A stretch of 61,901 bases of DNA, the filler included. It is 4 parts of 4 records of this genome, joined end to end, with 100 filler letters (N's around TTAATTAATTAA, not from the genome) between each part and the next. Parts side by side here need not be neighbours in the genome. Positions count along the whole stretch, not along the records: positions 29,908 to 38,821 come from SRR20825019_695; 3 more parts are not named here. One strand, written 5' to 3'. Shown here piece after piece: positions 9,316-55,216 of this stretch. Position 1 is the stretch's first letter; each line of letters begins with the position of its first letter. Under the pieces are notes generated by a model. It saw only the letters and a list, made by a program, of their open reading frames with translations. It did not search any database and was not told where the DNA came from. Position numbers and translations under genes: made by a program.

Positions 9316-9390
9316 GGGCGTATAGCTCAGCGGGAGAGCACCTCGTTGACATCGAGGGGGTCACAAGTTCAATCCTTGTTACGCCCACCA
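9316..9390 (+). tRNA. tRNA-Val(GAC)
   Basis: 75-nt cloverleaf, anticodon arm CCTCG-TTGACAT-CGAGG, GTTCAAT T-loop, encoded CCA. Confidence 0.97.
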
Positions 9391-9436: not shown

Positions 9437-9511
9437 GGGAGTATAGCTCAGCGGGAGAGCATTCGCTTCACACGCGAAGGGTCACAAGTTCAATCCTTGT
9501 TACTCCCACCA
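9437..9511 (+). tRNA. tRNA-Val(CAC)
   Basis: 75-nt cloverleaf, anticodon arm TTCGC-TTCACAC-GCGAA, encoded CCA. Confidence 0.97.
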
Positions 9512-29807: not shown

Positions 29808-29907
29808 NNNNNNNNNNNNNNNNNNNNNNNNNNNNNNNNNNNNNNNNNNNNTTAATTAATTAANNNNNNNNNNNNNNNNNNNNNNNNNNNNNNNNNNNNN
29901 NNNNNNN
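29808..29907. other. Artificial contig linker
   Basis: 44N-TTAATTAATTAA-44N (stops in all six frames). Confidence 0.99.
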
Positions 29908-30643
29908 CTGGCAGGACTCGCAGGAGTCGTTTCCGCCACACACCGACCAGGCGGAGGTGCCGTGGACGAGGACGGACGCGAACAGGAGGAGCGTGATTGC
30001 TGCCAGACGGGCCATATGTCACCTTGTCAATTATCTAGTCACCGTCACACTCTCAGGCCGCGATACTTCTAGGTGTGTGCTGGCGTTGTGAACTGGCAAC
30101 CGACCGCTCAGCGGTGACCTCTCACCATCCCAAGAGAGGAGGTGGGCCAGTTCGTGTGGGTGTCACGGCGGATGGGCGGCCCGCTAACCCTGCTGCTGTG
30201 TTAGGTGCTGGGGATCCCAACTTTCTATATAATGAATGAATTGAGGAGGGCCTCATATCGGTTACTCTCAATTCAAACTCGAGTCAGCTGGCGAGAAACC
30301 GCGGGGATCCTGGGCCTGGCGGTCTCGGATTTGGGCGAGCAGTACCGACCAAACGATCGGGCTCGTGGACCCGAACTCTTGTGGTCCCAGGAGGTCAGTG
30401 GGAAAGTTCTGTAAAGCCTGTGCAAAAGCCACCTCCCGACACTTTAGCGTTGACCTGATGGGTGGCCTGGGCCAAATCTTGAAGGCTTCTTCGGGATGTG
30501 CGGGAATCTATATTTAGCGCTATATCTTACTGTAACAAAGGAGGTGAACGTTGGGGGGTCGGTCACGTCCTACGATCGGTGGGCTGCTCGTTCCTCCGCC
30601 TGAGTCTGTTCGGCCACACCACGCTGGCGCCACCAGAGGCAAT

Positions 30644-33600
30644 ATGCCAGAGTTAGCCTGCGGTCCACAGGGTGACGAACCTCCTCCTGGCAGTCCTGCA
30701 CGGAAGAAATCTCGTGTTGGATCTTCATACTGCAAGAAAACCGAGCGACTCTTCCTGAAACCTCGGGCAAGAACTCTCCAAGTTGGCACACGCCATATTG
30801 AGTTGGCTTGGGCCCACAACGCCTTGGATAAAAATGAATGCCCTTTCTGGTTCCATTGTCCAGTATTTTCTTCTGATGAGACCTGGAATGAAATCCTTGG
30901 AAAGGAGGCGGCGAAAACCTTCCGTGGTAGAATCAAGAATGTTACCGAGGGATCTAGAGACAGGATAACGTTTGAATGGTCAGCTGACTCTGGTACTTCG
31001 AGTATCAGAGTTCCCTTTCTGAACAGGAACTGGTGGCTCAAAAATGTTTCTGGCTATCTTGGCTCCGAAAGGCCTCTTGCGCGGGAGTTTGCAGAGAAGT
31101 TCACGATGCTGTTGCTTAAGCTCACCATGACTGAAGTTTCTGGCCACGACGAAGAACATGAACAAGAACAAGGGCAGAAGTCTCGCACTCAAGGCAGGCC
31201 GCCGCCCCCAAGCCGCATGGGGCAACGGTCGCAAGAACAAGAACAAGATTTTGGTCGTCGCCAAGAACAGCACGAAGATTATGAAACATGCAGCGAAGGG
31301 AGTGATGATGATTTGTCCTGCGATGCCGACGATGAGGAGATGTACTGCTGTGACAGATTCATCCAAACTGGCAAATGCTTGTGCAAGCACAACGAAGGGA
31401 TCAGCAACCGAATTATGAATGTCGTGAAGTCGCGCGAAGACGCTCTTAGAGAGTTTGACTCACAACCCGAGGGAGCACCTAATATGCTTGAACGGTAATC
31501 AATATCCGAAATCTTGTATCGATAGTGAACTAAGTTTCAGTCTTTTTCCCTGCAGGCTCCTTGACTCTAGTGAGAAGGTCTTCATCGTTGACTTCCATGC
31601 CCTGAACAATCTGAGCGATAAAGTCGAGAAGAAGAGCACGAACGCGACCAGTGATCGTGCAGCTGCTAGAAACCTATTGAAGGGAAGAACGAAAGTCAAG
31701 ATTGGCTCCAAGCGTAGTGGCTTAGGATCTGATAAGACTGGCGTGTGGACATTTACGGGCATGTTTGGAACCAGGTCAGAGATCGAGGAGCTAAGGGGGC
31801 CGGCTGAAGCGAACAAGAAGACGCTCATCAAGAAAATGTTTGCTGCGGGAGTGTTCAAGGAGGCTGCATATGTTGTTGCATCGAGCATTGAGCACTTTAA
31901 GGGACGAAGGTTGATGCAGGCAGACGCAGCGGTGCAAGTTGACATCTGTGCTCCAACAAATCGCAAGGGCTCGAAGCGGAAATCGAAGAGGAAACTCCCT
32001 CCGTATGTGAAGACTGTGGAGACGGGCATTGTATCTCGTGGATCATGTCCCAGGTGCAGGAAGAAGTCGGCGAGGTACGGAGGGGTTATTCATGCACTAC
32101 CTGGAGCAGCGATTGGCTGTAGTCATGAAGTGAAGCCCGAGCGCAATGAAAGGAAACCTCTGAAAGAATTCCATGAACGCAAGGATGTCGTCGAGTTCAA
32201 GAAGATGCAGAACGATTTGCTCAGTGTTGCAGTTGAGGTGGGAACATCTCTGGATTTGGCCCTGAAGAACCTGGAAGGCAATCGCCAGATGGGCAGCATC
32301 GAAGAAGCCGCTGCTTTCGCTGCAGAAGTAGAAACTGCGGACGGATCTGATACGAGCCCGATCCAACTCGTGAATGCTGAGAAGGAAGCCTTTGTGAAAA
32401 GCGTCATCAGTAACGTTGACGCGAGCTTGGCAACTGCCGAGTATCTGGGAGAGAACAACTACGGAAGCATAGTGGCTTGTGGTGATGGTATTCCCCTTTG
32501 TAGCGATTCCAGTTTGGCTGAAGATGAAGCGATTGCGGATATGGCAAAAGCACTTGACGCTTTGAAACTTTACCCCGGTGTTGACACTGATGGAAGAGTG
32601 AAGAAGATGCTCGAGGACCGTGTGAAGAGCTTTCGGGACCTGAAGGCGACTCATATCAAGGCTTCTGCCGACAAGCTTTTTTCGATTCAGTGTTTAGACG
32701 AGTATGTGTCCGACGTTGAGGTGATGTTCCCAGATAGGGCAATGGATGAAGTGGTGGAAGGTCATAAGGACTACCTCCAAGAGCGAAGCAAGAAGTTGAA
32801 GGAGGATATAGCCGAGGTGCAGCAGATGCAAGAATATTTGGCCAAGGTCTTAAAGAGTGATCCCCAAGACCCGTTGGCCCCTCCACCTTTGGGAGACGCC
32901 GTTACGGAGAAGTTGGAGAACCTTAACATGCACGTCGAAACCTGCCTCCTTCACTCGAGCAAACTCATTATGGAGGAAGCTGCCTATGAGAACAGTGAAA
33001 GGAAGGCGCGATTAATCGGTCTGTATGAGGTTCATCGAGACGCTGGTGCGCTGATTCGGCGTGCTGCTTCACTGATCGACCATGAGCAAACGCCAGACGA
33101 ACAGCTACTGAAGTCTGCTGAGAGTATTCACAAGGAGTTCAATGCCGTGAAGAAGAAGCGGAGCAAGTTGCACGGTGCGCGGGTTCATCCTGAGCTGTTT
33201 ATATATTCGGCCTTAGACTATCGTATTGATGCAGTGAAGGAAGACATCGAGAACCTGTTCACTGACGTTCGCTCTCGCTATCATAAGAAGAAGGGTATAG
33301 ACCAGTCGCGGCTGAATATTCGCAGGCTGAAACGAATTTATTCCGAGATTTCTAGTGAGAAGACTCGTGAAAGTGGGAGTTCTACTACTGTCCTGCAGGC
33401 CAAGATTGAATCTGCAAGGCAAAGTGCACTACGTCGAATTCGCTTTGGTCTACTTGAGAAATCGGGACGGGCTACGGAAGACCTATCAAACCATATGATT
33501 ATGTGGAAGGATGCTGTCAAAGCATACATGGACTTCTGCAACTCTGGCCAGGCGAACAACTTAAAGCGGGATTTGATTTCCGCTAAGGTTGAATCGTATT

Positions 33601-36600
33601 CCATTTGGGCAACTAGGACTGCGCGATGGAAGAGTACTCGCTGCGATCTTCCCTTTGCTACTTTCGTTGAGGTGACCAAGTTTGACCCTTCTACCGACCT
33701 TTGTGGAGGCCCCCAAGAGCCCAACAGAATGTCTGCCTGGCAAGCGGGTAACTTAGTGGCAAGCGCAAACTTGTCACGGGAGGGATACGAGGTGCTTCGT
33801 GAAGGTGACGACTTGCTGGCCGAATACTTGCCGAAGTGGAGTGACGACTTTTGTACAACGAACGCGGCTGTGTATGAGGAGCTGTGGGAGAGTTTGGCGG
33901 CAGTTGCTGACCCTTTGAACAAGCAAACACTCTTTGCTCTGGGCAAGATGGTACGTGCGAAAATGGCGTTGTGGCTGAACAGCGGGCAAGCAAACCCGAA
34001 GGAGCTAGACACGGCCTGCCTGCGGTTGACTTTGGGGCAAGATGGTGTCATGGTGTCCTCTCAGATTAGCATGTTGAACATTGGCGGCTCCATTCAAGGA
34101 CTGGACCATGTTGATCCATTGGAAGTCAGGGATGCTCTCTTGATGGGAGCTCAGTATGGAAAGGAGAGCAACGACAACATTTCTCACTACTTCACCGGAT
34201 GTATGCAAGCTTTTCCCTATGACCCTGATGACATGCAAACCGTGTGCCCGGACATACATGTGAATATTGCCGGTCGACAGTTGAAGATCCGCATCGTCAT
34301 AGGCTGGGATAAGCATTTTGTACGTATATTTGGTTATGATAGCTTGCGGGAGATCTAATGCTGCTGTTTTGTTTTCAGGCACGCATCGCTATGAAGGTGG
34401 GCTCTTCCGGATGTATGCAGTGCTTCAGCAAGAGCCGTGAATACAGTTGTGAATGCACGCATGTGCTGCCCTTTGTGAAGCCCAATAACGTCTATCCCAT
34501 GCCAGTATGGAAGGAAGGCTTCAGCGAATCAGAGCAGATGAAGTATGATGAGGACCTCAAGAAGCATTGTGATGAGCACCGAAGGATGGAGAAGGCCTTT
34601 GAGGAAGCAAAAGTGTTCAAGAACGGTATTGACTCCGACACCATGAGAGCGGGTTGGGTCGCCGCGAAGAAGGCCATTTTAAGTGAAAAGAAAGAGCTAT
34701 GGGTTCATGATCCAACGTGGGAAGACGCTGTTCTTGAACGAGAGGTTGTTACCTACAACGCAGCCGGTGATCGCACTGCAGTGGCCTCCAAGGCGGTCTA
34801 TCTACACAAGCTTGTGAGGGCAGACGGTGTCCGAAATAATGTACCAGTATTTAGTGAGGCTAGTGCGTGCTATCTACCTTACCGTGTGAACGAAATCAAT
34901 GTCGACGCAGTGAACTTTGCAAGAGGCGAGGATGACAACAATGAAGAAACAGTGAAGAGGCTCAAGGAGGAATTGGCTCCTCCACTTCCCCTGAGGGTGC
35001 TGGTAGAGGATGGCGATCAAGGATGGCTTGAGCGCACTAGTGATAGTGAGGTTTTTGGCAACTACCCAATTGGTTGTGATACGAGGTGTCTTCGGTGCGG
35101 GGGGGAGTCCGAGACAACCACGGAAACATCAAATGACGAGAACTACACCGAGGCTGTAGTGATTTTGTCGGGGCTGAAGGTGCCAGTTTGTAGGCATTGT
35201 GTCTGTGCTCTCCACATGTGCCTTAATAACACCGCGATGGTGATTAGGGTATGTGTGACCATGTCCATGAATGCTGACGAGCACCTTTATAAGTCCGGCA
35301 CGGGTATGAAATCTTATCAGAAAAGGGTTACCGATAGAATAGCCAGGACAGGCGCCAAGGTGACGTACTCTCGTAGAATGAAGAAGAGGAAGGTAACTCC
35401 GGACGATGTGGATACCTCCGTGGACAATGCAGACGATGAGAATCCCCATGAACCGGTTGCTCTGAGGGTAAAAAATTGCCATGGGAACGAGATGGGAAAA
35501 CTGTTGGACAAGCATGGTCTTCGAGACTGTGCCGCTATTCTTCGGGAAGCTTTTGAAGCTGTGGACAAGTGTTCCGATGGAGACTCGTCCAAGAAGGGTC
35601 GCGCTGTGACAGAACTGGTGATGCTGCATACTCAAATCAAGCATGAATTGTACAGTCTGGATCCTTGGGGCATGCATCGCCTAGGTGTGATCAAAGGACG
35701 GGATTTATATGGTACGGGTCCGAATATTGACTGCGTTCACAAGCCGCCTGTGGAGCGCCACGAAGATAACGAACATCGGCGTGGCTGTGCAGCCGGGTGC
35801 AAGTGCGAGGAGTGGAAGGGTTACAAGGTTCCCCATGTGCCTAATTTTACTTCCAAGAATCCTGAACGTCTCCAACATCTTTGGAACACTGTCCGCTGCT
35901 ACGTGAAAGCCCTGTCTTTCCAAAAGAAGGTGGCTCGTATAATGGCAATCTTGCGCTTTCTGTGTCCCAAGGCAATGTCGGGATCAGCTGATGATCATTT
36001 CGACTTTTTTGGGTCTTATGTCCACGATCTTGGAAAACACATGGTCGATATCATCTGGATGTACGGGGATGCAGCGTCCTTGTCTCAATTGGTATTGGAG
36101 ACGTTGAACAAGGATCTTATTAAGGCAAATCGTCATCGGGCCCCTGCTGCCGCCGCTTACAAGCGAGATGACCGGGAAGATGAGGCACGGAAGGCACCAA
36201 CATCTTGTGCTGTCTTTGCTTACACTAGAAGTCAATTGTACAAGAAGAGTCTTGACGCCATTCTGGAAACGCCGACGCCCACTCGCATCGGAAAGCGGCT
36301 TCTGTCTAGTACAGCTTGTATGCCGACTACTGATGGAGTGCAGAAGTGTGTGAAGCGCCCCGCTCGCATTGTCCGGGGGAGGGTGATGCCTTCGAGTCAC
36401 ATCATGACTTACTCTCACCCCGTGACTAGAAATGTAAGTTGTTTCAGAATTGGACACTCCCCGCTGCTGACTAGCTTGCTCTATTGCAGTCTGAGCTTTC
36501 CTCAAAGTTCACAGCATCAGCAGAACATCCAGAGGGTGAAACGCCTCGAGGTTTCTCCTCGACCTTGAGAATAGATGTCCCGCCTCTACCAATGCATGCA

Positions 36601-38165
36601 GACTTCCTGGGGTCATCTCGGTCAATGCTTACTCGGGCCGGGTCTGGCCGGTACTCCCCTTTGAATGGCCACATGGTTTCTAATGACTCGGCGTTATATC
36701 TAGAATGCGCAGAGCTGAATCGTCCAGTTCACAAGAGACTGCGGCTGGACCGTGGCGATTTGGACGAGGCTGAACATGTCAACGGTTTGCAGACTCTGGA
36801 CCAGAAACGTCAATACTTTGGAGATACCCATCCGTTGACATATGCCCATGAAATGCGAAACAAGCTATTTTTTGCTTTGGAAGCCTACCATAAGAACAAG
36901 GAAGGTGCATCAAACCCACTCTCCTTATCTAATTCACAGAAGGGGCTAGTCAGCAACTTCAAGCATCCCAACCTTCCCAATGTCATGAAAGTCGTGAATC
37001 AAGTCTCTAGGCAACTATTGGGTAACATTGGACACGTTGCAGAACGGGTGAACTCTCAGGATATGCAAAAAGAGAAGACAAGAAGAAGGAACGAAGAGCA
37101 GCCTAAAGTGCCTGATTCCTGGAAGAATCCCGACTCAGAGGACTCTAAGGACCTTCAGCTGATGAGCAGATGTATTCAAAAGGCGCTTGACCCAAGTGAC
37201 GAGGACAAAGACCGAACACCACAAGTTATTTTCTCAAAGCACTACAAGGCCAATAGAGGCAAGGCCGTCGCTAAGTTTGTGACTCAGTTCAATGAGTACG
37301 TAGGCGACTTCTTCAAGACGAAGAATTCCAATGGAAAGGCTACGGGAAAGAAGGCTTGGTGCATTGAGCGTAAGCACAAGGAAAGTTCATACTCGGACTT
37401 GGAGCTTGCACAGACTCTGGTATCTACGTATACGAATGGCGAGAAGGTCAACCAGACTGTTCCTGCTACGGCTCATGCGGCTGGTAGTGAAGATACAGTG
37501 ACATACTTCTCGAATGGTTCTCCTACATGGTCTTATCGCGATGTCAACTCTGCCCCGATCACAAGACTGCGAGAAATGCTGCGCGATGTGTCCCCCGAAG
37601 TTGAGGCCAAGCTTGCGAATGAGTCGGCCGAGTTGCTCCGGTATTTGCTTGTGTGTGTAGGCACTACTTATGCGACGAAGGACAAGTCCTTCAATCAGAA
37701 GGTGTGGATGCTCTCGGAAAGTGAGGATGATGCTGCCTGCCTATGGTGTGTATCTTATTGCTAGAATTTCCTGCAAATGCTAATGTTGTTTGTATTATCA
37801 GGAAGAAGGGTATCCTTAACAAGGATAATCTACCAGACCCCAATGATCTGCCGGAGTTCTTGGAAAAGAAGTTCATTCAAGATCATGGTGTGGCGAGATA
37901 CGATCCCAGGTTGTGTCGCCTCATCCAGGGCAACCCATTGCTTGGAACTCTCAAGAATATCCTGTCTCCTCACTCTGCGTGCAGCAAGTGTGGTCGAAAC
38001 TATGGAAGGACGCGCGAGGATCAGTGTGACAAGAGCGAGCTTGGATGCCTACCCCTGAGAGCGAAATTGTATTTTGACAAGATTGATCTTCTTGCGGACG
38101 AGTCTCAGCCAGCCCCCATACCCTTCACGGAGGCCCCCGTACAGGCAGGGCCGGGGTGCGCATAG
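30644..38165 (+). CDS. Giant intron-containing RAG1/Transib/CMC-type DDE transposase-like protein (~2429 aa)
   Basis: Exons 30644-31494, 31556-34319, 34379-36433, 36490-37745, 37802-38165 (7290 nt). All four GT-AG introns restore the reading frame. Motifs LTLGQDG, IGWDKHF...CMQC, CALHMC, HGNEMGKLL, YVHDLGKH, LETLNK. Upstream exons cannot be excluded. Confidence 0.8.
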
Positions 38166-38504
38166 GATCGTGATGCGTCATAAGTGTATTGCCGAGTAAA
38201 AGCTTTCTTTATCACCTAAAAAAAACACCTAGCGCTGTTCTAACCCTGACGGATCCTTCTCCTTCTCCACTGCTTCACCATCCCTAGCTGGCTAAATCTT
38301 TTCTAGGGGCCTTCGCTCTAGCCCCGCTTATGTGCATCTCGTAGTCAGGCGCCGGACCAAGCCAGGACCATGACAAGCACATCCTAATGGTTGCATTAAC
38401 GTGATCGCAAGTGAAAACCTCATCCACGCTGTTCTTGAACAAATAAGCATAGGTCCGGTCGTGAACCCGATCTTCTGCTGATTGATTAGGTATCCTCTTC
38501 TTCA

Positions 38505-38821
38505 CACTGTAAAATTCCGGGGAACCTAAACATGTGTAAACATGACACCATGTTTGCAAACATGGGTAAACATGCTCCGACATATATGTCTGTCTAAAAA
38601 AAACATGTAAATCCATGTTCGTAAACAGGGATGCATGTTCAACACACATGAAATCATCGTATGAATCCAATCGTGTGTGTGTACATCTCTCGACATGTAC
38701 CGACATGTCATGTACAAAAATATTGTGAAGTAATGCATGTCTGACCGTGTACCTGCACATGCAAAACATAGTAAGTATGTTTTATATGGGCCGAACACGA
38801 TGACATGATCGTGTTTGACCA
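38505..38821. repeat. AT-rich block of CATG / AAACATG repeats starting CACTGTAAAA; possible DNA transposon terminus
   Basis: About 15 CATG sites in about 290 bp, abrupt composition change at 38505, contig ends inside it. Confidence 0.55.
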
Positions 38822-38921
38822 NNNNNNNNNNNNNNNNNNNNNNNNNNNNNNNNNNNNNNNNNNNNTTAATTAATTAANNNNNNNNNNNNNNNNNNNNNNN
38901 NNNNNNNNNNNNNNNNNNNNN
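38822..38921. other. Artificial contig linker
   Basis: 44N-TTAATTAATTAA-44N. Confidence 0.99.
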
Positions 38922-39598
38922 CCCCCCCCCCCCCCCCCCCCCCCCGGCACCATCACGTTGCGACGGCTGTCTCGGGTCCGACTGGCTCAGTTGAAGCCAC
39001 TCCGGCCTGGTGGTGCCGTACGGTGGTGGTTCGCGTCCTCCGCGGCCTGGCCCGACCGGACCATCGTCCGCTCGGCGTGTCACCACGACTGAGCGGTACA
39101 GTGGTGGTCGGGTCGTCGGGCTGCAGAACGGGCAGCGCAGTGCGGCATTTGGACTGTTGCCAAATAATAAATTTGAACAGAAAATTCAAAAGATACCAAC
39201 CGCTATTATAATATTTATAAGTAAAATTGCTTTGTTCCTGCAGTAAATGGGCTAACTCATAGCACTCGATTTCACATCCTGAACTGCCAGTCTGTGTCCA
39301 GCCTGCTGTCATGCCTCTGCTGGTGACCTTTGATCAGCCCGGGCGGGGGTGCGGCAGGAATCGTCGCGGACGCGACTCCGTCGTAGCTTGGCGACCAAGC
39401 GCGGCATGAGCGGCGCAGCCTAGCTGCTTGGCACGGCCAAACGCGCCCCGTGCTTTAAGTTGTAGGCAGGGCGTGCAGCGGTAGGTAAGTGCACCGCAGG
39501 GTTGACCTTGTGCGAGTTCAGCCTTCGTCGTGATTACTTCAAGCGTTATAAATGTTCATGCTGTTCGCTGTGTCGCAAGTGTGAGCAGCGCTGAAAAT

Positions 39599-42500
39599 AT
39601 GGATGGGGGAGAAAAGGCAGACCAGGAAGAGGTCGCCTCGCCGCCAGCTGCCGACCCGTCTGGGAGTTCTGAAAAGGCTACCAAGCCTGAAGTATCCCGG
39701 TAAGTCTTCGCTGTGTGCTTGGAGCCAGATTGGCCTTATATTTCATATAGGGCCCGTCGCGGATCCAGGCTTCGAAACCTCGAGGACATGGGAATGTTGA
39801 AGGTGAAAGACAAAGATTCAAAAGAGGACGTAAGTAGTGCAAAGTGCGCCCCTGAGGTGAAGCATAACACTTTGACTTTCCAGTCTGGTCCGAGCCCTCA
39901 GGAAATTAAGCGACTAGAAAAAGAGGAACGGAAAAAGGCGAAGAAAGCACTAAAAGCGCGAGATGCTATGGTTGAGGAGATGGTTGTTCCTGAGGATTTC
40001 ACCATGGCGGAAAGAATGGAATTCTCAAAGACAAAGTCTCCTGAAGAGGTGCAAGACCTAATGGAAAGGTATAACAAGCGGAAGGAAAGCAAGCCTGTTA
40101 CTAAGGAAGATAAGAGGAGGATGATCAAAAAGGTCTGTTAACCATGGTTATACTTTAAGTGTTCTTACACGGTATTCAGCGACTCGACGCAGTGCGTTTG
40201 CTCCAGAGGTGTTGGAGGGGGCATGTTGTACGCAAAGGTATTGTCCAGCCGCTGTTGGAAGCACGCCAGAGACATCGTGCCATCCTTAAGATCCAAAAGG
40301 TAGCGAGGGGTCTGCAGTCGAGGACCAAGATGAAGGGCCTTCGCATCATGTACAAGGAGAACAAACTTGCCCTGGACGCCATAGATGTTGAGTTGCAGCA
40401 GACCAAGTTCCGTAGGGAATGGAAGGCGGACTACGGTGGTAATACCCGTATTCATATCGCCGCCGAAGAAGATCTCTACAAGTGTGTGGAATTTTACATA
40501 ACTATTGGGGCCGACCCCAATAAGCGGTAGGGATAGTTTGTAGTGTTGAATATGCTGGCATCTGATTCTTTCTTTGCTAGTGATTGTTGTGGTCGCACCG
40601 TGCTCGACCATGCATTGAATCACGAGAGCTACCAAGTGGTTGCCTATCTGCTCTCGGTTCCCAATTGCAATGTGGAGTATGTGCCATTACGCACGTTTTC
40701 GTTCAAAACACATAACCTCGATTCCCAGTGCAATATGGTCTCGGACGACCAAGCCGGATTTCCAAAAGGTCATATACTATCTGAAGGAACACCAAGCACC
40801 GAGAAATGCCTTAGTTAGAAAGAACAGGTGCGGGATGCGACGATAGAGTACAATGGTCTCGCAGTTGACGCCGCTCTTCCCAGCTTTGGGCACACGTTGG
40901 CCCATGCTGCTGCACGTCGAGGCTCGGTGATTTCTTTGAATTTTTTGTACGACCGAAAGCTCGCCCAATTTACTTCGGAGGGGTGCAACAGGGGAGTGCA
41001 GCCGCTATCTGTTGCTCTGAACTTTGGCCATTTGGAGGTATGTGCCATATTGCTAAATCTGGTTTTCACTGATTTGGAGCCAGGCCGCGGCATTGATCTT
41101 GACGCGGACGTCAGAAATCAAGGAGACGGACTTGAAAATATTGTCAACAAACAACTTCCACCAGTTTCTCTTTGAACTCAAGGACCAAGTGAGCAGAGGC
41201 TTGGCTTCCGGGCTAGAATACTAACTCCATGCGCAGGTTTTCCCTTTTTCGAACATAAAGCAAAGATACGTGTGCTCTCTCTTGCTTTACCATGCCGTCA
41301 ACAATAAGCTTGAAGAAGACATTGTATTCTTATTGCGTAGGTACCCCACGATTTTAAAACATCATCGCGCCTGATTTTCTCCGTTGTGCCGCATAGAGGA
41401 AGGAGTTAAGGCTGCGTGTGTATTTCCGGATTTGAGAAGCCCGTTGTCCATATACGTGAAGACAGGTAGACCGTCCCTTGCCAAAAAGTTGATACGAGCT
41501 GGAACACCGATTGATGGTATGTTTCCCGGGAAATGAGTCTTGTGGAGATATAACGGTCGCGATATTTCAGGTGCCACCAAGGAGATTAAGGAGGAATGGT
41601 CCAACATCAATGGGTACTTGCTTCCACGTAAGTCCGTACCTGCCACAGGCTTTCAATGTTTGACGTTTCATTAGGGCTGGATATTGACGAAGAGCTTAAA
41701 TTGAAGTACGGGACTTTCAAAGACGACATTGTATCCACAGGGGAGAAGTCCCTCACTCCGCTTTATATCGCTTATGAGAATCTTCGCTCTGAGGTTGTAG
41801 CTGCCTTGATTGAAGAAGGAGCAGATCTTGAACCACTCATAATGTTTTCCGACGGTTTTGTTCTTGACGAAGCAGTTGACTACCTGGCAAAAACTGTAAG
41901 GGTTCATGTGATCCATTGCATTTTATCGAAGCGAGCTTATCCTTTACTCCTAGGGATACTTCTTGAGTTTGGAAGCGAAAGTGGAAGGAGAAGATGAACA
42001 CCTCAAGTGGCACTGTAAGAGCCCGGAGATGATCCATGTAGCCGCCCGGTTGGGGGCATTGAGAACTCTACAGTTCCTTACAAGTAGGGGATGCAGCTTG
42101 AATAAGTTGTGGAATGTGAGTTTATTGTCGGGAAAATTGAACGTAGAGCCCTGACTATTGTTAAGGATATGTCGCCAATGCACATTGCCTGCAAGTATCA
42201 GCAGGAGGCAGCAATATACCAGTTGCTTGACTACGGCGCCAATATTCTTATGAAGAATGGCGTTGGAAAAATTCCATTTGATCTGGCTAATCCCGGTGAG
42301 TCTCGAAATTGTTCAGGTTTCTTCATCGGCTGATCGCGCATCCTTTCAGGCATTCGCCTCTGCATTAAGCAGTACTACTCCTTGAAGAAGCAGATGCTAA
42401 TCGATCAGCTCAACGACGGGACTCAGTCCATTAGCGAAGAAGATGTTAATACTAGCCTTCAGAAGCTCTCTCAAGGGAAACGTGAGACATATGTATGTTA

Positions 42501-43737
42501 GCCTTCTTATATCTCTCTGATTATCGCACACAGACATCTCTGCTATCATCACCGAGTTGTTCGGAGAATCGTCCGGAATAGAAAATATCGAAAAAATTAG
42601 GGCACTCTCCAGGGCACCGTCTCCCATAATATCATATGAGCCGTCAGCCCAACCGGAAGAAGGTGAAGGTGGGCAGAAGAGTTTCTTTATAGATCCAGAA
42701 ATCCTTATGGAGGCGCAAAAAATGTTGCTCGGTGATGCCCCAGGCATGACACTGATTCGCTTCGGAATGGATGACCCAGTGGACGAGCCTGAGGGAGAAA
42801 AGCCCCAAATGAGGGCCAGGTCTTCCACTGACCAGTTGCCATCGCAACCGTCTCCAGAATCTATTGACGGAGGCGAGTCGGCGATGGGGTTCCTGAGCCG
42901 GGCAATACGAGAATGCAAACAGGAAGGTGACGAGGATCTTTCGGACCTAATGGAGAGTGACGAGGAGCAAGAGCAAGCAGAAGTTGGGGCGAAGCCCGAG
43001 GACGCCGGTGATTTGGAACCTGAGGGAGAACCTCAGTCCGACCATCAAGACCCTGACGAGACTGAAAAGGTGCAGGGCACCACTGAGGCCATGACTTCGG
43101 AGGAGGAAACGGACTCGGATGTGTCAGACAGTGACTTCACTGAAGAGGACGTCGAGGAAATTGAGAGTGACAGCGATCGAGAGCCCGACGTGACAGAATG
43201 GGGGAAATATGCTGAAATCAAGGACTTGGCCAAGCGAAAAGCAATGCAGCGGGCTGATCTAGAGAAACAGATGGTGACACTTGTGGCCTCGCTCGATCAA
43301 TCGACGAAGTTCACATTCCAAAATGTCGAGGAGGTACGTGCGCTTGAAGAAATTTATGATAGTCTTGTGCTTTTGTTGCTCACTTTATCACCGCAGCGAA
43401 TTGTTTACCGAAGGCCGAGCATATATGACACGCACACTCCTTCCATAGTCAAGCGTGCAATGCATAAGAACATGAGGCTTGCTGCTGGTCGAGAGATTAA
43501 GGTAAGCGCGGCTCATCAAGTTTTGGGATTTAATGCTGATAGAATGTATCCTCACAGCGCCGATACAAGGAGAAGATGGAGCCCAAGGAAAAACTGTACA
43601 GAATGCCGGTGAAATCCCAACGCCGGCGGCCGTATTGCTTGGATGGAATTGACCCAAACATATACACGGTTGTGCATGAGGAGGTGAAGAAGCTATCAGA
43701 CGCCGAAGCGAGTTCAAATTCCGATGCTAGTGACTGA
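39599..43737 (+). CDS. Eukaryotic multi-exon IQ-motif and ankyrin-repeat protein with an acidic region
   Basis: Introns include 39700-39750, 39830-39883, 40133-40179 and 43502-43557. IQ motifs LLQRCWRGHVVR and KIQKVARGLQSR. Ankyrin starts GNTRIHIAA, GHTLAHAAA, LTPLYIA, MSPMHIACK. Internal exon boundaries are not all resolved. Confidence 0.75.
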
Positions 43738-43756
43738 AGTGCAAGCGACAACAGAA

Positions 43757-46700
43757 TCATAGCACTGGTCTGGGTTCCAGATCGGTGGAGGCCGGGGGAC
43801 CAGGAGGCGGGTGACCCAGGCTCGGTCGAGACGCGAGAGGTAGATAGCAGTCCTCAATATCCTGCACAGCCATTACTGCGTGGTCTAGCTTTTTCCTTTC
43901 AAAGTAGTGTGGGCAGTCCACTGACACACATGGTGACGTCCGCACCGTATCTGGCCATCCTGTGCAGCGCGCGCAGAGCATGTGTGCTCGGTTCTGCTTG
44001 TCTTCCAGCATGCGGAGACGTTCGCTCAATACGTACACGCTGCCTTGCGGTTTCCTCAGGCATGGCTCGCACACGGGCTTGCGGGATTTGTTGTCGCAGA
44101 GGACACAATTCTCACAATAAACACCGACATCCTCGAGAGTTCTCTGTGCTTTCCGAGTGGATTCTATACACGGGTTAGAATTATGGAACAAACGGCAGAA
44201 ACCAACCCACTTGCTCCATGATCGATGTTCTTCAGCTGCCTCTTGGTGTAGTCATACTTCTGCTTTCTTGCGCTGGTGTGCCATGTTTTGACGTCGACTC
44301 CAAAGGTCCGGAATATCCTATCCAGGGGCGGCAAGACCATTTTGATGATATAGTATTTGGCGTCGATTTGGTCTCGACCGAGCGATTCCACCAACCGGCG
44401 CGGATTACAGGCCTATTCGAAATGCTCAGTCTGCCTGTAGAACAAGGCAGGCAACACCAAATTCACTCACATTGGAGGCAAGAGTCCCTTGATGCTTTGT
44501 ATTTACAATCACATACGGAATCCTTTCCTTCACCTCTGGTTCCAGCATGCGATCCTGGGCTAGACGTCAGAACCATCCACCGCAATGCAGCACATCCACC
44601 ACTCACCTCCGCCGCCATAGCCGAGGCAATGGCACGATTGGGTTGCACATTTGGTTTCGTGTACGAGCTCACGGGTTTAACTTCCCTTGCAAATATAAAG
44701 TCCTGAACTCCAACCCGTCCAGCATAAATCTTTTGGCACTGACGCTGTACGTAAGACTTGACAAGAGAAACATCTCTCGTCTCAAAAAGTAATCGCAAAC
44801 ATTTCTCCTGAATCTTAGCTACGGCGGGAACACCATCGCGTCTCACCGTCTCTATACCCTTCGCATCAAAGACTGGAACGGTTTGTTCGGGGGATGTGTA
44901 CGCATATCCGACATATCGCTTCTTCGTCAACATAACACTCGGATGGAACACCTTCTCGAACTGCAGCTTCATAGGCGCCGGCATCACATCAGTTACCATA
45001 GCCGCAATTTTGGCACCCTCTGTATGTGCCATCTCACGCGTAGCCCCGATCATTTCAACAAATATGGAGTCAGTGTCACCATATATCACGCGTACGCGGT
45101 CATTGGCCCGAATCTTGCGCTTCTCGCTCTCCGGCAATATCTTGAACCAGCGATCTTCATCGCTGTATCCATTATACTTCTGCTGAACCATGGTCTTTGC
45201 CTTGAGCAGCGCTCGCTTTCCTACCTCCACTATGCTGTCAGCGATATCTGCACAAGGCATACGCCCACTGAAGTTCGCGCTCGTGTATCCATATGTTACA
45301 TTCGCAATCAGTTTCAAACTCAACTGCCGTGCATTGAGCATTTTCTCTAACACCTCATCATTATTCCTCTTGGCTTTTCCCAGCGCTTGTTTGGTCATTA
45401 CTCTTGTTTGCAAAATCTCGCTCAACAGCCTTGGTAGAATTCCCTGGCGCTTCTCTGGCTTGACGTACGCGATGCTGTTTGGCGTTACAATGACATCGTG
45501 CTCATGCTTCATCCAGAAACCCGGATTCCTCTGTATGTGCGTCACTCCCAGTTTTTGCATTTCTTCGTCTGTAATCTTCCCTAGACATGTGGAATAGCAT
45601 ATGTTGTGACTTATCACAACAGAAGGGTACAGAGACTGGTAGTCGAGCACAAGAACAGGATTGACGTAGAAGTCGCTCTTAGGCTCCATGACGAGGGGAA
45701 TGCTCTCCGTTGCCGGCTGTTCTCTGACCTGTTCCCGGGTGGGAGAGATCATGACATAGTTCTGTGATTGCGCCAGCCTTGCCATCATGGACTCCACACG
45801 GTACTGTGAGCCCCTCGCCATTACTGACACAAAGTCTATCCCATACACACGGGCCATTTCTGAGGTTCTTTCGATGAATCCCATCTGATCCAACATGCGA
45901 AGATTCATGACGGCCCGGTCGAGGAAATACTCCAAGGGCCTCCATCGCAAATACGCCGGGCCAGTTGTAAACCAAGCCGTCAACACATCTGAGTCGACCT
46001 TGGGAGTTCGCACCTTGAATAGAGTCCACACCACATTCTCGTACGAATACATCCTCAGATTGTTCTCACGTCGTGCCACTCTCCACATATTTAGGATGAT
46101 GCGGCCGGTGATGTGAATGCCCGTGGAGTGCGCCATTCCGTACTCGTCATTCCTCCTGTCCTTTGGATCCAGGTGCCGGGCACTCATCACACGGCTCATC
46201 TCCACCGTCATATCAATCCCATGCCTCGCCCCGCGTGCCAAGATGAATGATAAAGAAGACTTCTGGATCTCATAACCCATCAATATTTCCGGATCACACT
46301 CTTGCACAATGGTGGCAAATGTTCGGAGTAGAACCTCTTCAGAGGGCACGCATTCCACGCGAGTACCCGGGTGAGCTGCGGATGGCCCCATGCTGTCAGC
46401 GTCAGTCTTAACAACGACGCCTTTCACAATATTATCCTTAAAACGACCTCCCATCCTTGCCGACCGCCGCTCATCATGGATGGCATACAGAATTGCGGTG
46501 ATCTCATCAAATTCCGGATCGGGTTCATTGCTCGAACGGGTTACACAGAAAGTTTCGATGCTCATCATAGTCAAGTTTTGCGATCGGGTGATTGACAACG
46601 ATTTGGCCTCAATATCCGAGGCAGCGACCGGGCTCTCTCTTGCTGCTGTGCCAACGTCAATCTGGGACACCGCAGTAGGCCCCGCAGGAGCAACCGAGGG

Positions 46701-49700
46701 GGGAACCGCTCTTTGACTCTCATGTTCCGCCTGGTCATTCAACCACTTCATCGCATCTGCGTATGAAGGCGGGCATTGGACTGGAGTCCAATGCGTGTGA
46801 CTCAGTATCCTCCTCCGGAAATCGACTCCAGTTGCGAACTCGCATCCATGAAATTCAGGAATAGAATCAAGCGCTGAAAACACGGGAAGTCAGCCAACAA
46901 TTACTCCAACAAGCACTAGGGGCATGGGGGATGGGGAGTGCCCACCCAACACACATGGAACACCACTGCAAAAGGATCAACACCTACTCGTCGGGCACTT
47001 AAGATCAATCTTGAGACCTGCGTACTCGATCGGTCCGGTCACATCGGCGGGATTGCTGTAATGAGGCTTTGTGTGTTCTTCGTATGGGAAAAGCTCCGCC
47101 TTCACATAGGTTAAGCTCGGTGGTGGGTGCGGGTTCCTCCACAGCCCCTGACGAATGGATGATCCACTAAATGGCCCTGAATGCGGGTGATCAGTAATAC
47201 GCACCATGTGCACAGGAAAGACATACCTGAAAAAGCGGGTGTATTATCCGAAGGCGGACGCGATGATATTCTACTTGGGCAGCCTTGGTCGCTGGACGCT
47301 AGATTGGCTTCTTCTCGGAGGTCCACCATGGGCCGTGGCTGCGACAGCTGTTCTGCATCACTCTCCACATTCATGAAACGAACAGAGGAGCCAACGGAGC
47401 CCTTAAATCCCCGCGACACCTCATTGCGCGCCCAATTGCCGTGAGATGGAACATACTCCTCATTGGAGGGTACTAAACCCTCGTGATCCCCGCTCGCTCC
47501 CTTCGGGCCGGGCTCAGTCTCCTTCCCTCTCAAGCGTTCACCATCTACATCCGGGTGTCCCAGGCCATCCTGTACAGCGGGCGCTACCCCCTGACTGGGC
47601 GGTGCCAGGATTTCATCAGGGCACTTCGCATCAAAGAGATTGTCTTGATTGGCAGTGCTGCTACTTGCGAGCTTTCCCGTCTCCACAGGGCTTCCCGCGG
47701 CCAAGGGCGTGTTGTCGACGACTCGATATTCTCCCTCCACGGAATCCCTGGCCTGCATAATGCTCGCCGGCTTCGCTGCCGTGTCAATATCCGCATCCTC
47801 GTCTAGGAACACCCTGCCTTGTGATATTGGTTTGCTTTTGTTGGTCCTTGATCTATCTACATCAGTATCCATTGACTGAGTAGTGTCCGGCTCAATCTCC
47901 AGCACGGTCTGCCGCCTTACTCGTTGCTTTCCATCTGACGTCTTGTGTCTCTTCATGATTACAGGAATGTCAGGCTTCCGGCTGGGTCGCTTCATGTCAG
48001 TTGAACCATCGCTGTCTCTTGGCCTGTGCGATCGAATCGCTGACGCCGCGGATGCGTCCCTGCTTCCTACGGCTTCCCTTCCTGACGAAGTTTTGAGATG
48101 GGGTCTACCATTCTTGCTATCAAGTGGCCGGATAACATCTACTCCAGCAGTTCCCGCCGCGCCTTCTCCCTCGGACCCGGTCTTCCGGGTTTGCAGTGGA
48201 ATGTACCGTGCCAACGCCGCCAACCCTTCGCTCGTACCACCGGCCTCCACATTGACCGGGGTCCCGGACACCTCGTTCGAGGCAGCAGGGGTTGAGTCAA
48301 CCCTTCGAACTTGAATACGAGCAGTTCGAACGGCACTAGGCGCCGAGGGTTTCGACTGTGGCGCGCCCATTGGCGCAGACGGCTTAGCTCTGGGGGCATG
48401 CGATGTACCAGCAGCATGAGGCCGATGACGACCGTGCGCCTCGTTCGCTTTTGACTTAGGTGGCGGATCCAATTCCATAGCATCATCATCGCCATCATCA
48501 TCGAGCTGCAGTGTGGTTCTCACGGTCTTCTTCTTCCGTTGTTTGTGTCGCCTGCGCCCGTCGTCATTCGCATCACCATCATACTGAGGTATCCAGTCAT
48601 CACCGGCACCGCCATCGTCAGAATCATCACCACACCCATCGCTCTGAGGGACCACTCTAGCATCCTTGCGAGAAGAGTTCCCATGCTCCTGCGACCCCGA
48701 AAGCACCGGCTGGATTTCCCAATCTTCAATATCTTCAAAGTCTCCCATCTTTTCGTCCGTCTTCGCCAGAGCATCCTTCCTACCTTCGTCGCTGTCATAT
48801 TGGATTACTATATTCTGAGTCTGCTCCACGTTTGGATGGTCATCGCCATCAAAGAATTCATGAGCTGGCCCTTCATTCTGTTCCGGTCTCTCATCATAAC
48901 CCCCCTCTCCATCCGAACCAGATGCATCCCCGCCACGCTCGGCCTCCCGGCCCGCTGCCAACAGCTCCAAGTCACGATCGAAATCGTCATCTTCCGTAAA
49001 CTGCGTGGCGGTACCCAGAAGTTCATCGGCCTGTTCTATAGGAATGCGTTCAGGTACCTGTGTAAAATCTATAACATCATCACCCTCCCCCCCACCCCCC
49101 CTCTCGGAATCACTCTTACGGTTCTCACTCACTGGTACGGGCAACCCCTGGCTCATAATCCCGTCGCTCGATTTGAGCGCCTCCAGGGGGTCAACTTCTG
49201 GAGCGTCTTTTTTCGATAAGCGTTCCTTATCCCAAGCCTGAACATACTTCAACTGTTCTAACACACGTACAACAACTCCCTCGGGCGGAGCCACATTACG
49301 AGCCTGACTACTTGATGGAGTCATATCCATCTCTGACAATCGCTCTCCTGCAGCCATCCGCCGCTTCCGCTCTTCTTCCCAAATAACCTTCAGTGATGGC
49401 ACAAACGATGTGCTCAGGGGTATCCCATGTTGAAGAGGATCCTTGATCTTGGCATCCACGTTGCCGATGTCCTCTTTCTCCACGTCTATCTCCAGTTCAC
49501 ACCTGGAAACCTTCCTCTCACTCCGCTTCAGCGCCTTACCCAGCGCCAATGGCAGCGGCAGAATGTTGTAATACGTCGTGGGTAGTGGTATCTCCTCCCG
49601 CGACCCTGCAGAAACACCAGTCTGTGTCTGCTTCCTCAGTGCCTCGCGTTCCATATGGACCTCATCCTTCAACCAATCCGGAACATCCGGAAGTGCTTCT

Positions 49701-50383
49701 CGAATCCGAAGCTTCCTGAATTTGACTAGGCCCATCCCAACAATGTTGTAGTCAATGAAGAAGTGCAAAAGGTAAGGAATATGCGCTTCGTACGGCTGGA
49801 TCCCATTGGCGGACAATAGCAATGCTGCCGGGGAGATGTAGTTTGGGTGAAAAAAGAATATTTGAATGAAAAACTGCTTCTGATCGTGGTAGCCGTAGTA
49901 TGGGATGCGCTGCGTCAACACCATCTTGAATACGTACTTCTTCTTTGGTGCCACATTGGACGGACGTGCAGCAGCAGTCGTGCCGGCACCACCTGCCCCG
50001 GCGGCACCTGCATGCTCTGCACTGGACCCCGGCGCTGCATTCCCGGCGTTCTCTGCCGTGCGCGCTGCCCGCATAGCCTCGTCCTTCTCCGCAAGACGTG
50101 CATCGAGAGAGGCGCTGAGCTGCTTCATGTACTCAGTACGATGGTCGAAGCTCTGGTCCGCCGGATAGGGCACGTACAGATAGGGGAGAACACCGTGCAC
50201 GTGTGAGCATATCTTCTGTCCCCCTTCGGTAGTTCCCCAGAGGCGGATGACGGGAACCTGCTGACCGGTGCTTGCTGAGGCTCGGCCGTAGGAAGTGGAC
50301 GACTCTTCCCGCGGGTAGGGCTCCATGTAGTAGTCCAGTGCCACCACCCGCATAGAGAGATTCAGCTCTCCATCCACATACAT
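43757..50383 (-). CDS. REV3: DNA polymerase zeta catalytic subunit (multi-exon)
   Basis: N-terminal DYYM...VPVIRLWG...HVHGVLPYLY and YEAHIPYLLHFFIDYN; long low-complexity insert; PolB motifs DYQSLYPS, KLIANVTYGY, YGDTDS, KKRY; C-terminal CysA/CysB; intron e.g. 47177-47226. Confidence 0.93.
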
Positions 50384-51547
50384 CCTCCTAAACCGCCAGT
50401 CCAGAAACACGTGTCGCCATACGAGACCTTTCGTCGGAAAGTTCTTGTCAATCCCAACCTGTTCGTGGGAAGTGGAAGTATTTTCAATAGTTCTAACCGA
50501 GCGGCCCACATACCGTGGCTCAGTGTTGGGACAGCGTTCAAAGCAGGCGTCCGTTGCTGGTTTAGTGGAGAGTCAACCTTCGGAGGTCAGTCACTCGTCA
50601 GTCCTGTCGGCCCAGACCGCTCTACGCCCCGCGGGGACCGCGGCGGGGCGGGCGCGTCCGAGACTGCACCAACACAGACTATCCGGAGGTGCGCGCCCGC
50701 GCCCGCGCCCGGTCAAAGCTCGCGCCGCAGCGCGCCGCAGGCGCTCGGGGCCGCGCTGTCGCGGCCCAGCCACATTGTGCCAGCTCAGCGATAGCCACTG
50801 GCATGACAGATTAGCAGTCCGACTGGGCGCGGGATCGGATCTTCCCGGCCGGCTTCCGCCCTTATACCAATAATGAAGTTAGCCCTCATGTGATTCTAGT
50901 ACATTAAGTATGGTTGACATTAGTATAAGCCCAAAATGAGTGGTTCAACAGCCTCCTTTGAAGGCGAGCAAGGAAACTTTCTCATGGCAACATTTCCACG
51001 TCTCCCCTGGTGTCACCACCCGATCTTGGCGTGGCCTCAGACTATGAAACACAGCCGCATGGAGTACTTTGGCCTTTTGGGGGAACGATGATTCCAGGGA
51101 ACGCACACAAACTTTCCCACACAAGGATAAGGGAAACTTGTAAGGCCTTGCTTGCAGTGGCGCTCGCCTCATCACTCAGTGACGGCGACAGGGTTAGGGC
51201 GCGGTGGCGCTTGTGCATCGTACCCAACAATCAGGTGGCAGTTCCCTCCTGGCTCACCGCGACACTTCATGCGGACTGGCCAAATGGCTTCAACCCTTCA
51301 GTGACTACGCTTGAGTTTGACCGGTTCTTGTCGAATTCTCCGTTTCGTTTCTAACTTGGTCACCCCAACCCTTCCCTGTCAAGCTGGCTCACCTGTCGAG
51401 CACCATGGACTGCGTGGCTTAGAATACCCCGCTCTCTTCTCAGCCCTCCTTCCCCTGGCACTCAGCCGCCACCTGCTATATAAGGCTGTTACCCATACAC
51501 GGAAATGTTGTTAAGAGCCTCTTCAGATCAGGCACAGAGACGATATT

Positions 51548-54408: not shown

Positions 54409-54579
54409 AGAAGCGTGCCACGCTTGTTCAAAGTCAAGTGGACGATTTCAAGGCCATATGCGCGGAGGCCTGTTGTTAGTCGTGTTGATGGCAAGCCATT
54501 GTAGATATCGCAATCAGTGTTGGAGATACAACCCTTACATAAACCATAAGATTTTTTGTGTGGACTAACAGGAAACAGT

Positions 54580-55116
54580 TTACTTCATGTAGTTGCCGAT
54601 CTGGTACAAGGTCTCAATGCCGTGGAGCTCACGAATCTTCTCGAGGTTACCGGGCTCGCCAGCAAGACGGGCCATGGCGATAGCGGAGTTCTTCATACCC
54701 TCGCCTCCTCGCTTCTCCCTCAACACATGAAGCAACGGTTCAATGGCAGGACGCAGAGTCACCTTGTTGGCGTCAACATGTGCCAGGTTGGCAATGCAAA
54801 GAGCCGAGTTTGCGAGAAGGTGCTCATTTGTGAGAGAGAGAAGAGATGTGAACGACAGCATGCCCTCCTTAGACATTGCTGTTCTCGACTTTTCATCGCG
54901 GAGCAGGCACTGGGCAAGGGCGCGCACAGCCTGCTCCTTCGAAGCGTCAGTAGCGGACTTGCTGCGACATACTGCCTCCAAGGCCGGAATGTGCTTTCCC
55001 TCGCGGATACTGACTGCAAAAGGTGTGTGGCGCGCACACCGCGCAATCAGTGTTGATGCACGTGTGACGATAATACTGTCCTTATCCTCCTTCACCAACT
55101 TCACCAAATCATCCAG
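54580..55116 (-). CDS. Armadillo-repeat C-terminus, TTC12-like (5' truncated by the contig end)
   Basis: LLANSALCIANL...KNSAIAMARLA...IRELHGIETL resembles the TTC12 C-terminal ARM repeats as I recall them. Confidence 0.65.
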   Translation of the reverse strand: MDDLVKLVKEDKDSIIVTRASTLIARCARHTPFAVSIREGKHIPALEAVCRSKSATDASKEQAVRALAQCLLRDEKSRTAMSKEGMLSFTSLLSLTNEHLLANSALCIANLAHVDANKVTLRPAIEPLLHVLREKRGGEGMKNSAIAMARLAGEPGNLEKIRELHGIETLYQIGNYMK

Positions 55117-55216
55117 NNNNNNNNNNNNNNNNNNNNNNNNNNNNNNNNNNNNNNNNNNNNTTAATTAATTAANNNNNNNNNNNNNNNNNNNNNNNNNNNN
55201 NNNNNNNNNNNNNNNN
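55117..55216. other. Artificial contig linker
   Basis: 44N-TTAATTAATTAA-44N. Confidence 0.99.

Follow-up and report, generated by a model that had tools for sequence, protein, structure and literature searches.

The 61,901-nt window analyzed in this study (the whole stretch of DNA considered here) consists of four contigs joined by linkers and does not represent one stretch of a chromosome. Contig 2 (29908-38821; 8.9 kb, approximately 47-57% GC) carries a gene located at positions 30644-38165 of the + strand, for which a RAG1/Transib-like transposase of a microbial eukaryote was originally predicted as the product. Five stop-to-stop open reading frames (ORFs) were found on this strand: 30548-31498, 31428-34358, 34343-36568, 36475-37764, and 37731-38165. 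As had been proposed, these ORFs could be joined through four GT..AG introns, and the reconstruction yielded one frame of 7,290 nt with 2,429 codons and a single terminal stop.

All the exons and introns of the gene lie on the + strand. Exon 1 (30644..31494) starts with the first ATG of the ORF 30548-31498 and encodes amino acids (aa) 1-283 plus 2 nt; the N-terminus encoded here is acidic, Gln-rich, and of low complexity. Predicted intron 1 (31495..31555; 61 nt, GTAATC..CAG, GC 0.36) contains a CTAAG branch-like site. Exon 2 (31556..34319; aa 284-1205) encodes a long, mostly helical, charged region followed by a candidate pre-RNase H/RNase H part that contains the residues D1113 and D1202. Predicted intron 2 (34320..34378; 59 nt, GTACGT..TTTTCAG, CTAAT branch-like site, GC 0.39) divides the candidate core, so that D1202 is found on one side of it and a CxxC motif on the other. 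The peptide expected across this junction was present in the spliced translation. Exon 3 (34379..36433; aa 1206-1890) encodes 685 aa, including a candidate ZnC2/ZnH2-like part, two long inserts, and a helix bearing a Glu residue. It is followed by predicted intron 3 (36434..36489; 56 nt, GTAAGT..TTGCAG, CTGAC branch-like site) and by exon 4 (36490..37745; aa 1891-2308), which has no recognisable domain. Finally, predicted intron 4 (37746..37801; 56 nt, GTGTGT..ATCAG, CTAAT branch-like site, GC 0.32) precedes exon 5 (37802..38165; aa 2309-2429 plus the stop codon), encoding a C-terminal Cys cluster with CSKC at aa 2369.

The four introns are similar in their organization. All of them are 56-61 nt long and have a branch-like site 15-25 nt upstream of a pyrimidine-rich 3' end, and their GC content (0.32-0.48) is lower than that of the exons (0.49-0.53). 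Alternative in-frame GT..AG pairs, many of them longer, exist at every junction (56, 45, 73, and 62 pairs, respectively, including those of the model). The chosen introns have recognisable donor and acceptor consensus sequences, and at three of the four junctions all the shorter in-frame pairs lack a pyrimidine tract. The exact exon-intron borders are predictions made from the sequence. In DNA with approximately 50% GC, ORFs of 144-976 codons following one another on the same strand are far beyond what chance would produce. Joining of the ORFs by reassignment of a stop codon was also considered and rejected; consecutive ORFs are in different frames, none of the four intron lengths (61, 59, 56, and 56 nt) being divisible by three.

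The composition of the gene was compared with that of the other contigs. Contig 3 (38922-55116; approximately 47-57% GC in 2-kb bins) is eukaryotic, as indicated by its genes for Tcp11 and for a split DNA polymerase zeta (REV3). The REV3 gene is represented by at least two ORFs (REV3_N/POL3_N and DNA_pol_B; 44463-50572, - strand), and the intron between the ORFs carries the signals CTGAC...TTTTCAG, the same as those in the 2,429-aa gene; Tcp11 is encoded at 51775-54408 (+ strand). Codon frequencies of the gene correlate with those of REV3 and Tcp11 with r = 0.85, vs. r = 0.37 for the high-GC contigs. Similarly, the GC content at third codon positions (GC3) is 0.50-0.59 in the gene and 0.56-0.60 in REV3 and Tcp11. 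The gene is native to the eukaryote with approximately 50% GC and is a genuine, intron-bearing nuclear gene of this microbial eukaryote. A viral origin was rejected because the introns of the gene are of the spliceosomal type and it shares its codon usage with REV3 and Tcp11.

The CMCT clade of transposases includes RAG1/Transib, CACTA/EnSpm, Mirage, Chapaev, Plavaka, ESTA, and Lanisha. Its signature is formed by two Asp, one Glu, two Cys, and three His residues (Kojima, 2025). At the motif level, the encoded protein has these residues in the order of the signature: D1113, D1202, C1217/C1220, H1484, H1754/H1759, and E1779. The candidate first catalytic Asp, D1113 (codon 34041..34043), is read from the motif LTLGQDG and follows a hydrophobic stretch, and the candidate second one, D1202 (34308..34310; IRIVIGWDK), stands at the end of the segment IRIVIGW. 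The motif SSGCMQC (34403..34423; aa 1214-1220), with CMQC at aa 1217-1220, corresponds to the pattern S-x2-C-x2-C, which occurs only once in the 2,429 residues, 12-18 aa beyond D1202. The SxxCxxC pattern is reported to be conserved in RAG1 and Transib (Kapitonov and Jurka, 2005; PMC1131882). H1484 (35213..35215) in CALHMCLN (aa 1481-1488) could be the third of the conserved His residues of the clade, and the motif HGNEMGKLL was located at aa 1573. Further downstream, HDLGKH (36023..36040; aa 1754-1759), an H-x4-H motif, ends 20 aa before E1779 (36098..36100; ETLNK), the candidate third catalytic residue, which is followed by x2-NK. All the motif and residue coordinates of the original prediction proved correct in the spliced translation. 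The catalytic triad and the zinc ligands had been described as looking intact; the residues are indeed present and in order, and this holds at the level of motifs. When the protein was shuffled 5,000 times with its composition preserved, a strict version of the signature, defined post hoc, was never found. The motifs alone are suggestive, not decisive.

Additional evidence was provided by a feature search in the ESM Atlas over 7.7 million clusters, for which the marks are a recognition of 2300 and 170 shared features. Two non-overlapping queries were used: exon 3 (685 aa) and a 206-aa piece spanning the two candidate Asp residues, herein referred to as the D..D piece. For exon 3, the top matches were unnamed clusters (0.92 and 0.91), and the named ones included Transposase_21/DUF4218 clusters (0.91 and 0.89) and three RAG1 clusters (RNase_H, ZnC2, ZnH2, and pre-RNase_H) at 0.89; a family or clan is common to nine of the ten best named matches. 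For the D..D piece, rank 1 was an unnamed eukaryotic cluster (0.95, 176 shared features), rank 4 was a RAG1/RAG1_DNA-bd/pre-RNase_H cluster (0.91), ranks 7, 10, and 15 were RAG1_RNase_H clusters (0.90-0.89), and rank 23 was Transposase_21 (0.88). In total, the named matches were RAG1, Transposase_21, DUF4218, DUF1280, and SAP. The sub-domains assigned in this way agree with their order along the protein. Retrieval by two separate pieces of both families named from the motifs is hard to put down to chance.

On these grounds, we consider the chances slightly better than even that the gene is a very divergent one derived from a CMCT-type DDE transposase. From the observed gene model, ordered motifs, and language-model neighbours we infer the fold, catalysis, and zinc site of the product as follows. 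The middle third of the protein (aa ~1100-1790) would form an extremely divergent DDE (RNase H-like) transposase/recombinase core of the CMCT clade, with D1113, D1202, and E1779 as the presumed ligands of two divalent metal ions. DNA would be cut at the ends of an element or target by nicking and then transesterification, as in Transib and RAG. A structural zinc, presumably bound by the Cys pair C1217/C1220 and the His pair H1754/H1759, would position the Glu-bearing helix. Such a core would be enlarged by two inserts of approximately 260-270 aa each, with ~1,100 N-terminal and ~640 C-terminal residues added to it. More tentatively, the gene may represent an unrecognised, deep-branching CMCT lineage, diverged to the point that nothing but hallmark residues and language-model features is left of the kinship. 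Its 2,429-aa protein would have two inserts of ~265 aa in the zinc region and long extensions at both termini, and the gene would be intron-bearing, host-like, and possibly domesticated, in an unsampled microbial eukaryote.

A considerable number of results weigh against a transposase origin. The Pfam search, with a limit of E <= 1 for the five exons and of E <= 10 for seven sub-pieces, revealed nothing relevant, and the RAG1 family and PF02992 were without a match even at E <= 10. The matches obtained were noise: CobT, GeBP, Med16_C below its cut-off, PDZ_assoc, PknG_rubred, DUF5848, and HIRAN. The sub-threshold match to Med16_C covers aa 1388-1481 (34925-35206) with E 0.001 and 19.8 bits vs. 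the cut-off of 21, and it probably reflects a Cys pattern (the CLRC, CRHC stretch) and not homology. The missing Pfam match argues only weakly against a transposase, because Nozomi, a bona fide Transib transposase of Drosophila, is reported to have no InterProScan domain match either (bioRxiv 2026.08.26.747230). A phmmer search of 177,635 distinct Protein Data Bank (PDB) sequences at E <= 10, with exon 2, exon 3, a 116-aa D..D piece, and a 56-aa H..H..E piece as queries, revealed nothing relevant; its one match was a cellulose synthase zinc-binding domain with E 0.75. The PDB presumably contains RAG1, RAG1L, and HzTransib chains. Neither by Pfam nor by the PDB search was similarity to Transib or RAG1L detected at E <= 10. 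Exon 3 had no matches at E <= 0.001 among 1.84 billion representative proteins. No matches were found in word-indexed protein searches with exon 2 against proteins of near length, with residues 640-921 of exon 2 against longer proteins, or with the 206-aa D..D piece at E <= 10, and no related loci were found in the metagenome, prokaryote-genome, and viral contigs scanned. A real transposase family would usually have relatives. Eight ORF translations had no exact copy in a collection of 15 billion proteins, and the source organism is thus unsampled in this collection. By the alignment standard, the predicted protein is an orphan.

The language-model, motif, and structural data include points against a transposase as well. 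The Atlas recognition values of 2012 and 2231 are both below 2300, and the RAG1 rows reach at most 0.91 with 134-157 shared features, below the mark of 170; by the calibration of the Atlas, these rows fit a distant relative and a chance match alike and are to be taken as leads. A loose regular expression for the signature was found in 182 of the 5,000 shuffles (3.6%). The distance between the candidate second Asp and the Glu is 577 aa, vs. reported distances of 253 aa for RAG1 and 206-214 aa for Transib (PMC1131882). No GRP[RK] motif was found near the core, the sole GRP being at aa 184, ~930 aa before D1113, and no CC.HC (CCGHC-type) tail was found in the 2,429-aa protein. The nonamer-binding-domain (NBD) motif GRP(R/K), upstream of the core, and the CTT tail have been described as features of RAG1L and Transib (PMC10462144; PMC9435367). 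Alternatively, CMQC could be part of a zinc knuckle or a local cluster of Cys residues (C1217, C1220, C1229, and C1231). Structures predicted by AlphaFold2 (AF2) without an alignment for aa 900-1205 and for exon 3 had predicted local distance difference test (pLDDT) scores of 39.1 and 37.7, respectively. Foldseek searches with these models (pLDDT 38-39) gave best E-values of 0.64 and 0.75 and no transposase; with models predicted at such low confidence, this outcome means nothing. The secondary structure in the same low-confidence models offers some hints in favour of a transposase: D1202 follows a strand (aa 1198-1200), HxxxxH is located inside a helix (aa 1742-1766, pLDDT 51-71), and E1779 is in the next helix (aa 1771-1790). 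E962 of RAG1 is likewise located on a helix (PMC10462144). The original prediction as a whole is partly supported: the gene model, the ordered motifs, and the language-model neighbours stand, and profile and alignment links to RAG1, Transib, or CACTA were not obtained. The term RAG1/Transib-like is too specific; the evidence allows the protein to be called a candidate member of the CMCT clade.

The flanks of the gene provide information on whether it is mobile or resident. Besides the 2,429-aa gene, contig 2 contains only 36 codons from the start of a divergent neighbour (29908..30015, - strand), which is cut by the contig end. The product of this neighbour looks secreted and Cys-rich, with a 36-aa signal-peptide-like N-terminus, and the intergenic region between this gene and the ATG at 30644 is 628 nt long. 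The 5' flank (736 nt) and the 3' flank (656 nt) were searched for inverted repeats linking them, and the local score did not exceed 18, vs. 20.3 +/- 2.2 for shuffles; a second search for terminal inverted repeats (TIRs) in the flanks of contig 2 revealed only short chance pairs. The absence of TIRs within these flanks is a further point against a transposase. The contig ends 656 nt beyond the stop codon. Downstream of the gene, GC content falls to 0.44, and a CATG-rich region was found at 38500..38821, 335-656 nt past the stop codon and reaching the contig end. It contains 15 CATG in 322 nt, vs. 57 in the whole 8.9-kb contig, and TAAACATG occurs in it four times at 10- or 20-nt steps, together with inverted copies. 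These may be subterminal repeats of a CA..TG-ended element, binding sites, or a regulatory or low-complexity stretch. No paralogs or internal repeats of the gene were found in the 61,901-nt window. Neither was a RAG2-like (kelch) gene found on the 8.9-kb contig, which is too short to exclude linkage. The genomic context leans slightly to a resident, host-like gene.

Several other explanations can be proposed for the gene. As the main rival, its product could be a lineage-specific orphan protein without transposase ancestry, in which motifs selected visually in a very long sequence with Cys and His arose by chance and the language-model neighbours are noise due to poor recognition; we regard this as possible, though doubtful. 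The zero homologs obtained by alignment methods, the Atlas values below both marks with named matches not above 0.91, the loose signature in the shuffled proteins, a D2-E spacing (from the second Asp to the Glu) more than twice that of any cited member, and a structure prediction that yielded nothing all fit an orphan. Against an orphan stand the retrieval of RAG1 and Transposase_21 by two non-overlapping pieces from among 7.7 million clusters, the sub-domains being ordered correctly, as well as a sole SxxCxxC just past the candidate second Asp and an HxxxxH ending 20 aa ahead of E-x2-NK; the strict signature was absent from all the shuffles too, though it was defined post hoc. The transposase reading is ranked above the orphan one because of the retrieval of both families by two separate pieces. 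It is very improbable that the gene belongs to another superfamily (for example, KDZ/Zisupton, hAT, or Academ) or encodes a non-transposase zinc-finger nuclease. The size of the protein, its several Cys/His clusters, and the sub-threshold Med16_C match could be brought forward for such an assignment, but no Pfam model of KDZ/Zisupton, hAT, or Academ was matched at E <= 1 to 10, and the named Atlas matches are RAG1, Transposase_21, DUF4218, DUF1280, and SAP instead.

If the gene is derived from a CMCT transposase, two states of it have to be considered. The first, an active or recently active autonomous CMCT transposon with its termini beyond the 8.9-kb contig or at its edge, appears unlikely. 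The frame is intact with all the candidate catalytic residues, and the short contig stops inside the CATG-rich repeat cluster; assemblies often break at repeats. The termini of CMCT elements are mostly 5'-CA..TG-3', with target site duplications (TSDs) of 2-5 bp (Kojima, 2025), and the CATG cluster is compatible with such termini. The GC content of the downstream flank is lowered as well. On the other side, the inverted-repeat score of the flanks is below the shuffle mean, a divergent neighbour gene starts 628 nt upstream, the codon usage is the same as that of housekeeping genes, and no second copy was found in the window or in the metagenome, prokaryote-genome, and viral contigs scanned. The second state, tentatively proposed, is a domesticated single-copy gene for a recombinase or DNA-binding protein, which originated from a CMCT transposase and was fused to large host-specific regions. 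Host-like codon usage, the four predicted spliceosomal introns, the flanks without TIRs, the close divergent neighbour, ~1,700 extra residues around the core, and the lack of a paralog in the window are consistent with domestication. The introns are less telling in this respect, as they are also reported in CACTA-type transposase genes (PMC4158355).

The four contigs of the window are separated by 100-nt linkers of the form N44-TTAATTAATTAA-N44 at 29808-29907, 38822-38921, and 55117-55216, which we take to be of the all-frame-stop type used for stringing contigs together. Since the window consists of joined contigs, adjacency across the linkers is meaningless. Contig 1 (1-29807) and contig 4 (55217-61901) form one compositional class, with 58-70% GC in 2-kb bins and a gene GC3 of 0.81-0.88, and contigs 2 and 3, with a gene GC3 of 0.50-0.60, form the other one. 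Codon frequencies of the two classes correlate with 0.37-0.51, and the assembly is probably a mixture of sequences from two organisms or from a host and an associate. Contig 1 encodes FtsX/MacB-type and PreP-type proteins as well as two tRNAs (9316-9387 and 9437-9508, + strand, 50 nt between them; Rfam tRNA, 67 and 67.6 bits). A 793-aa MORN-repeat protein is encoded on contig 4 (56575-58956, - strand). A stretch of 24 consecutive C opens both contig 3 and contig 4 and has the appearance of an artefact of sequencing or assembly.

In the origin of the V(D)J recombinase from a transposase, RAG1 and Transib play a central role, and it was not until 2022 that the two were reported to extend to unicellular eukaryotes and bacteria (Tao et al., 2022). 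If the gene does descend from a CMCT transposase, surveys by BLAST and HMM would underestimate the age and diversity of the clade, and microbial eukaryotes may hold independently domesticated RAG-like recombinases. The gene would also be a concrete case for judging how much trust residue-pattern and language-model signals deserve where profile methods fail. If this origin is wrong, the finding reduces to an orphan gene, large but located on a small contig, and its interest is limited.

The candidate core shares with RAG1 and RAG1L the order of its elements, i.e., Asp, Asp (GWDK here), SxxCxxC, ALH, H-x4-H, and Glu followed by x2-NK, and clusters of RAG1 sub-domains are neighbours of both its halves in the Atlas. 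The spacing of 20 aa between His and Glu is presumably the same as that between H942 and E962 of RAG1. In contrast to RAG1 and RAG1L, the protein has no detectable sequence similarity to this group, its D2-E distance is 577 aa and not 253 aa as in RAG1, it lacks GRP[RK] near the core and the CC.HC tail, and no RAG2-like gene was found on the short, 8.9-kb contig. With 2,429 aa, it is presumably more than twice as long as RAG1. The gene for AanRAG1L of a pelagophyte consists of a single exon (Tao et al., 2022), whereas four introns are predicted here.

Transib proteins are ~650-700 aa long and bounded by TIRs with 5-bp TSDs. The Nozomi Transib transposase has 648 aa (bioRxiv 2026.08.26.747230) and shares with the protein studied here the absence of a Pfam/InterPro domain match. 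SxxCxxC after the second Asp, described for Transib (PMC1131882), is present here too. The differences are the D2-E distance (206-214 aa in Transib vs. 577 aa), the absence of TIRs in the contig flanks, and the absence of sequence similarity; RAG1L and Transib themselves have a mean identity of ~26% between the groups (Tao et al., 2022; PMC9435367).

With CACTA/EnSpm and the other CMCT transposases, the protein shares the signature of D, D, E, two Cys, and three His, and the gene has introns as in CACTA. The only link to CACTA is provided by the Transposase_21/DUF4218 neighbours in the Atlas (0.88-0.91), and PF02992 was not matched even at E <= 10. No description of a giant CMCT member was found in the open-access literature searched, supplements aside. 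Published hosts of RAG-like transposons and Transib already include a pelagophyte alga, a chytrid, rusts, plants, and bacteria (Tao et al., 2022; PMC9435367; Martin et al., 2023), so a RAG1-type enzyme in a microbial eukaryote is not new in kind. What would be new is the divergence of the protein, which is invisible to HMMs, its size of 2,429 aa with two ~265-aa inserts, and its intron-bearing, host-like context.

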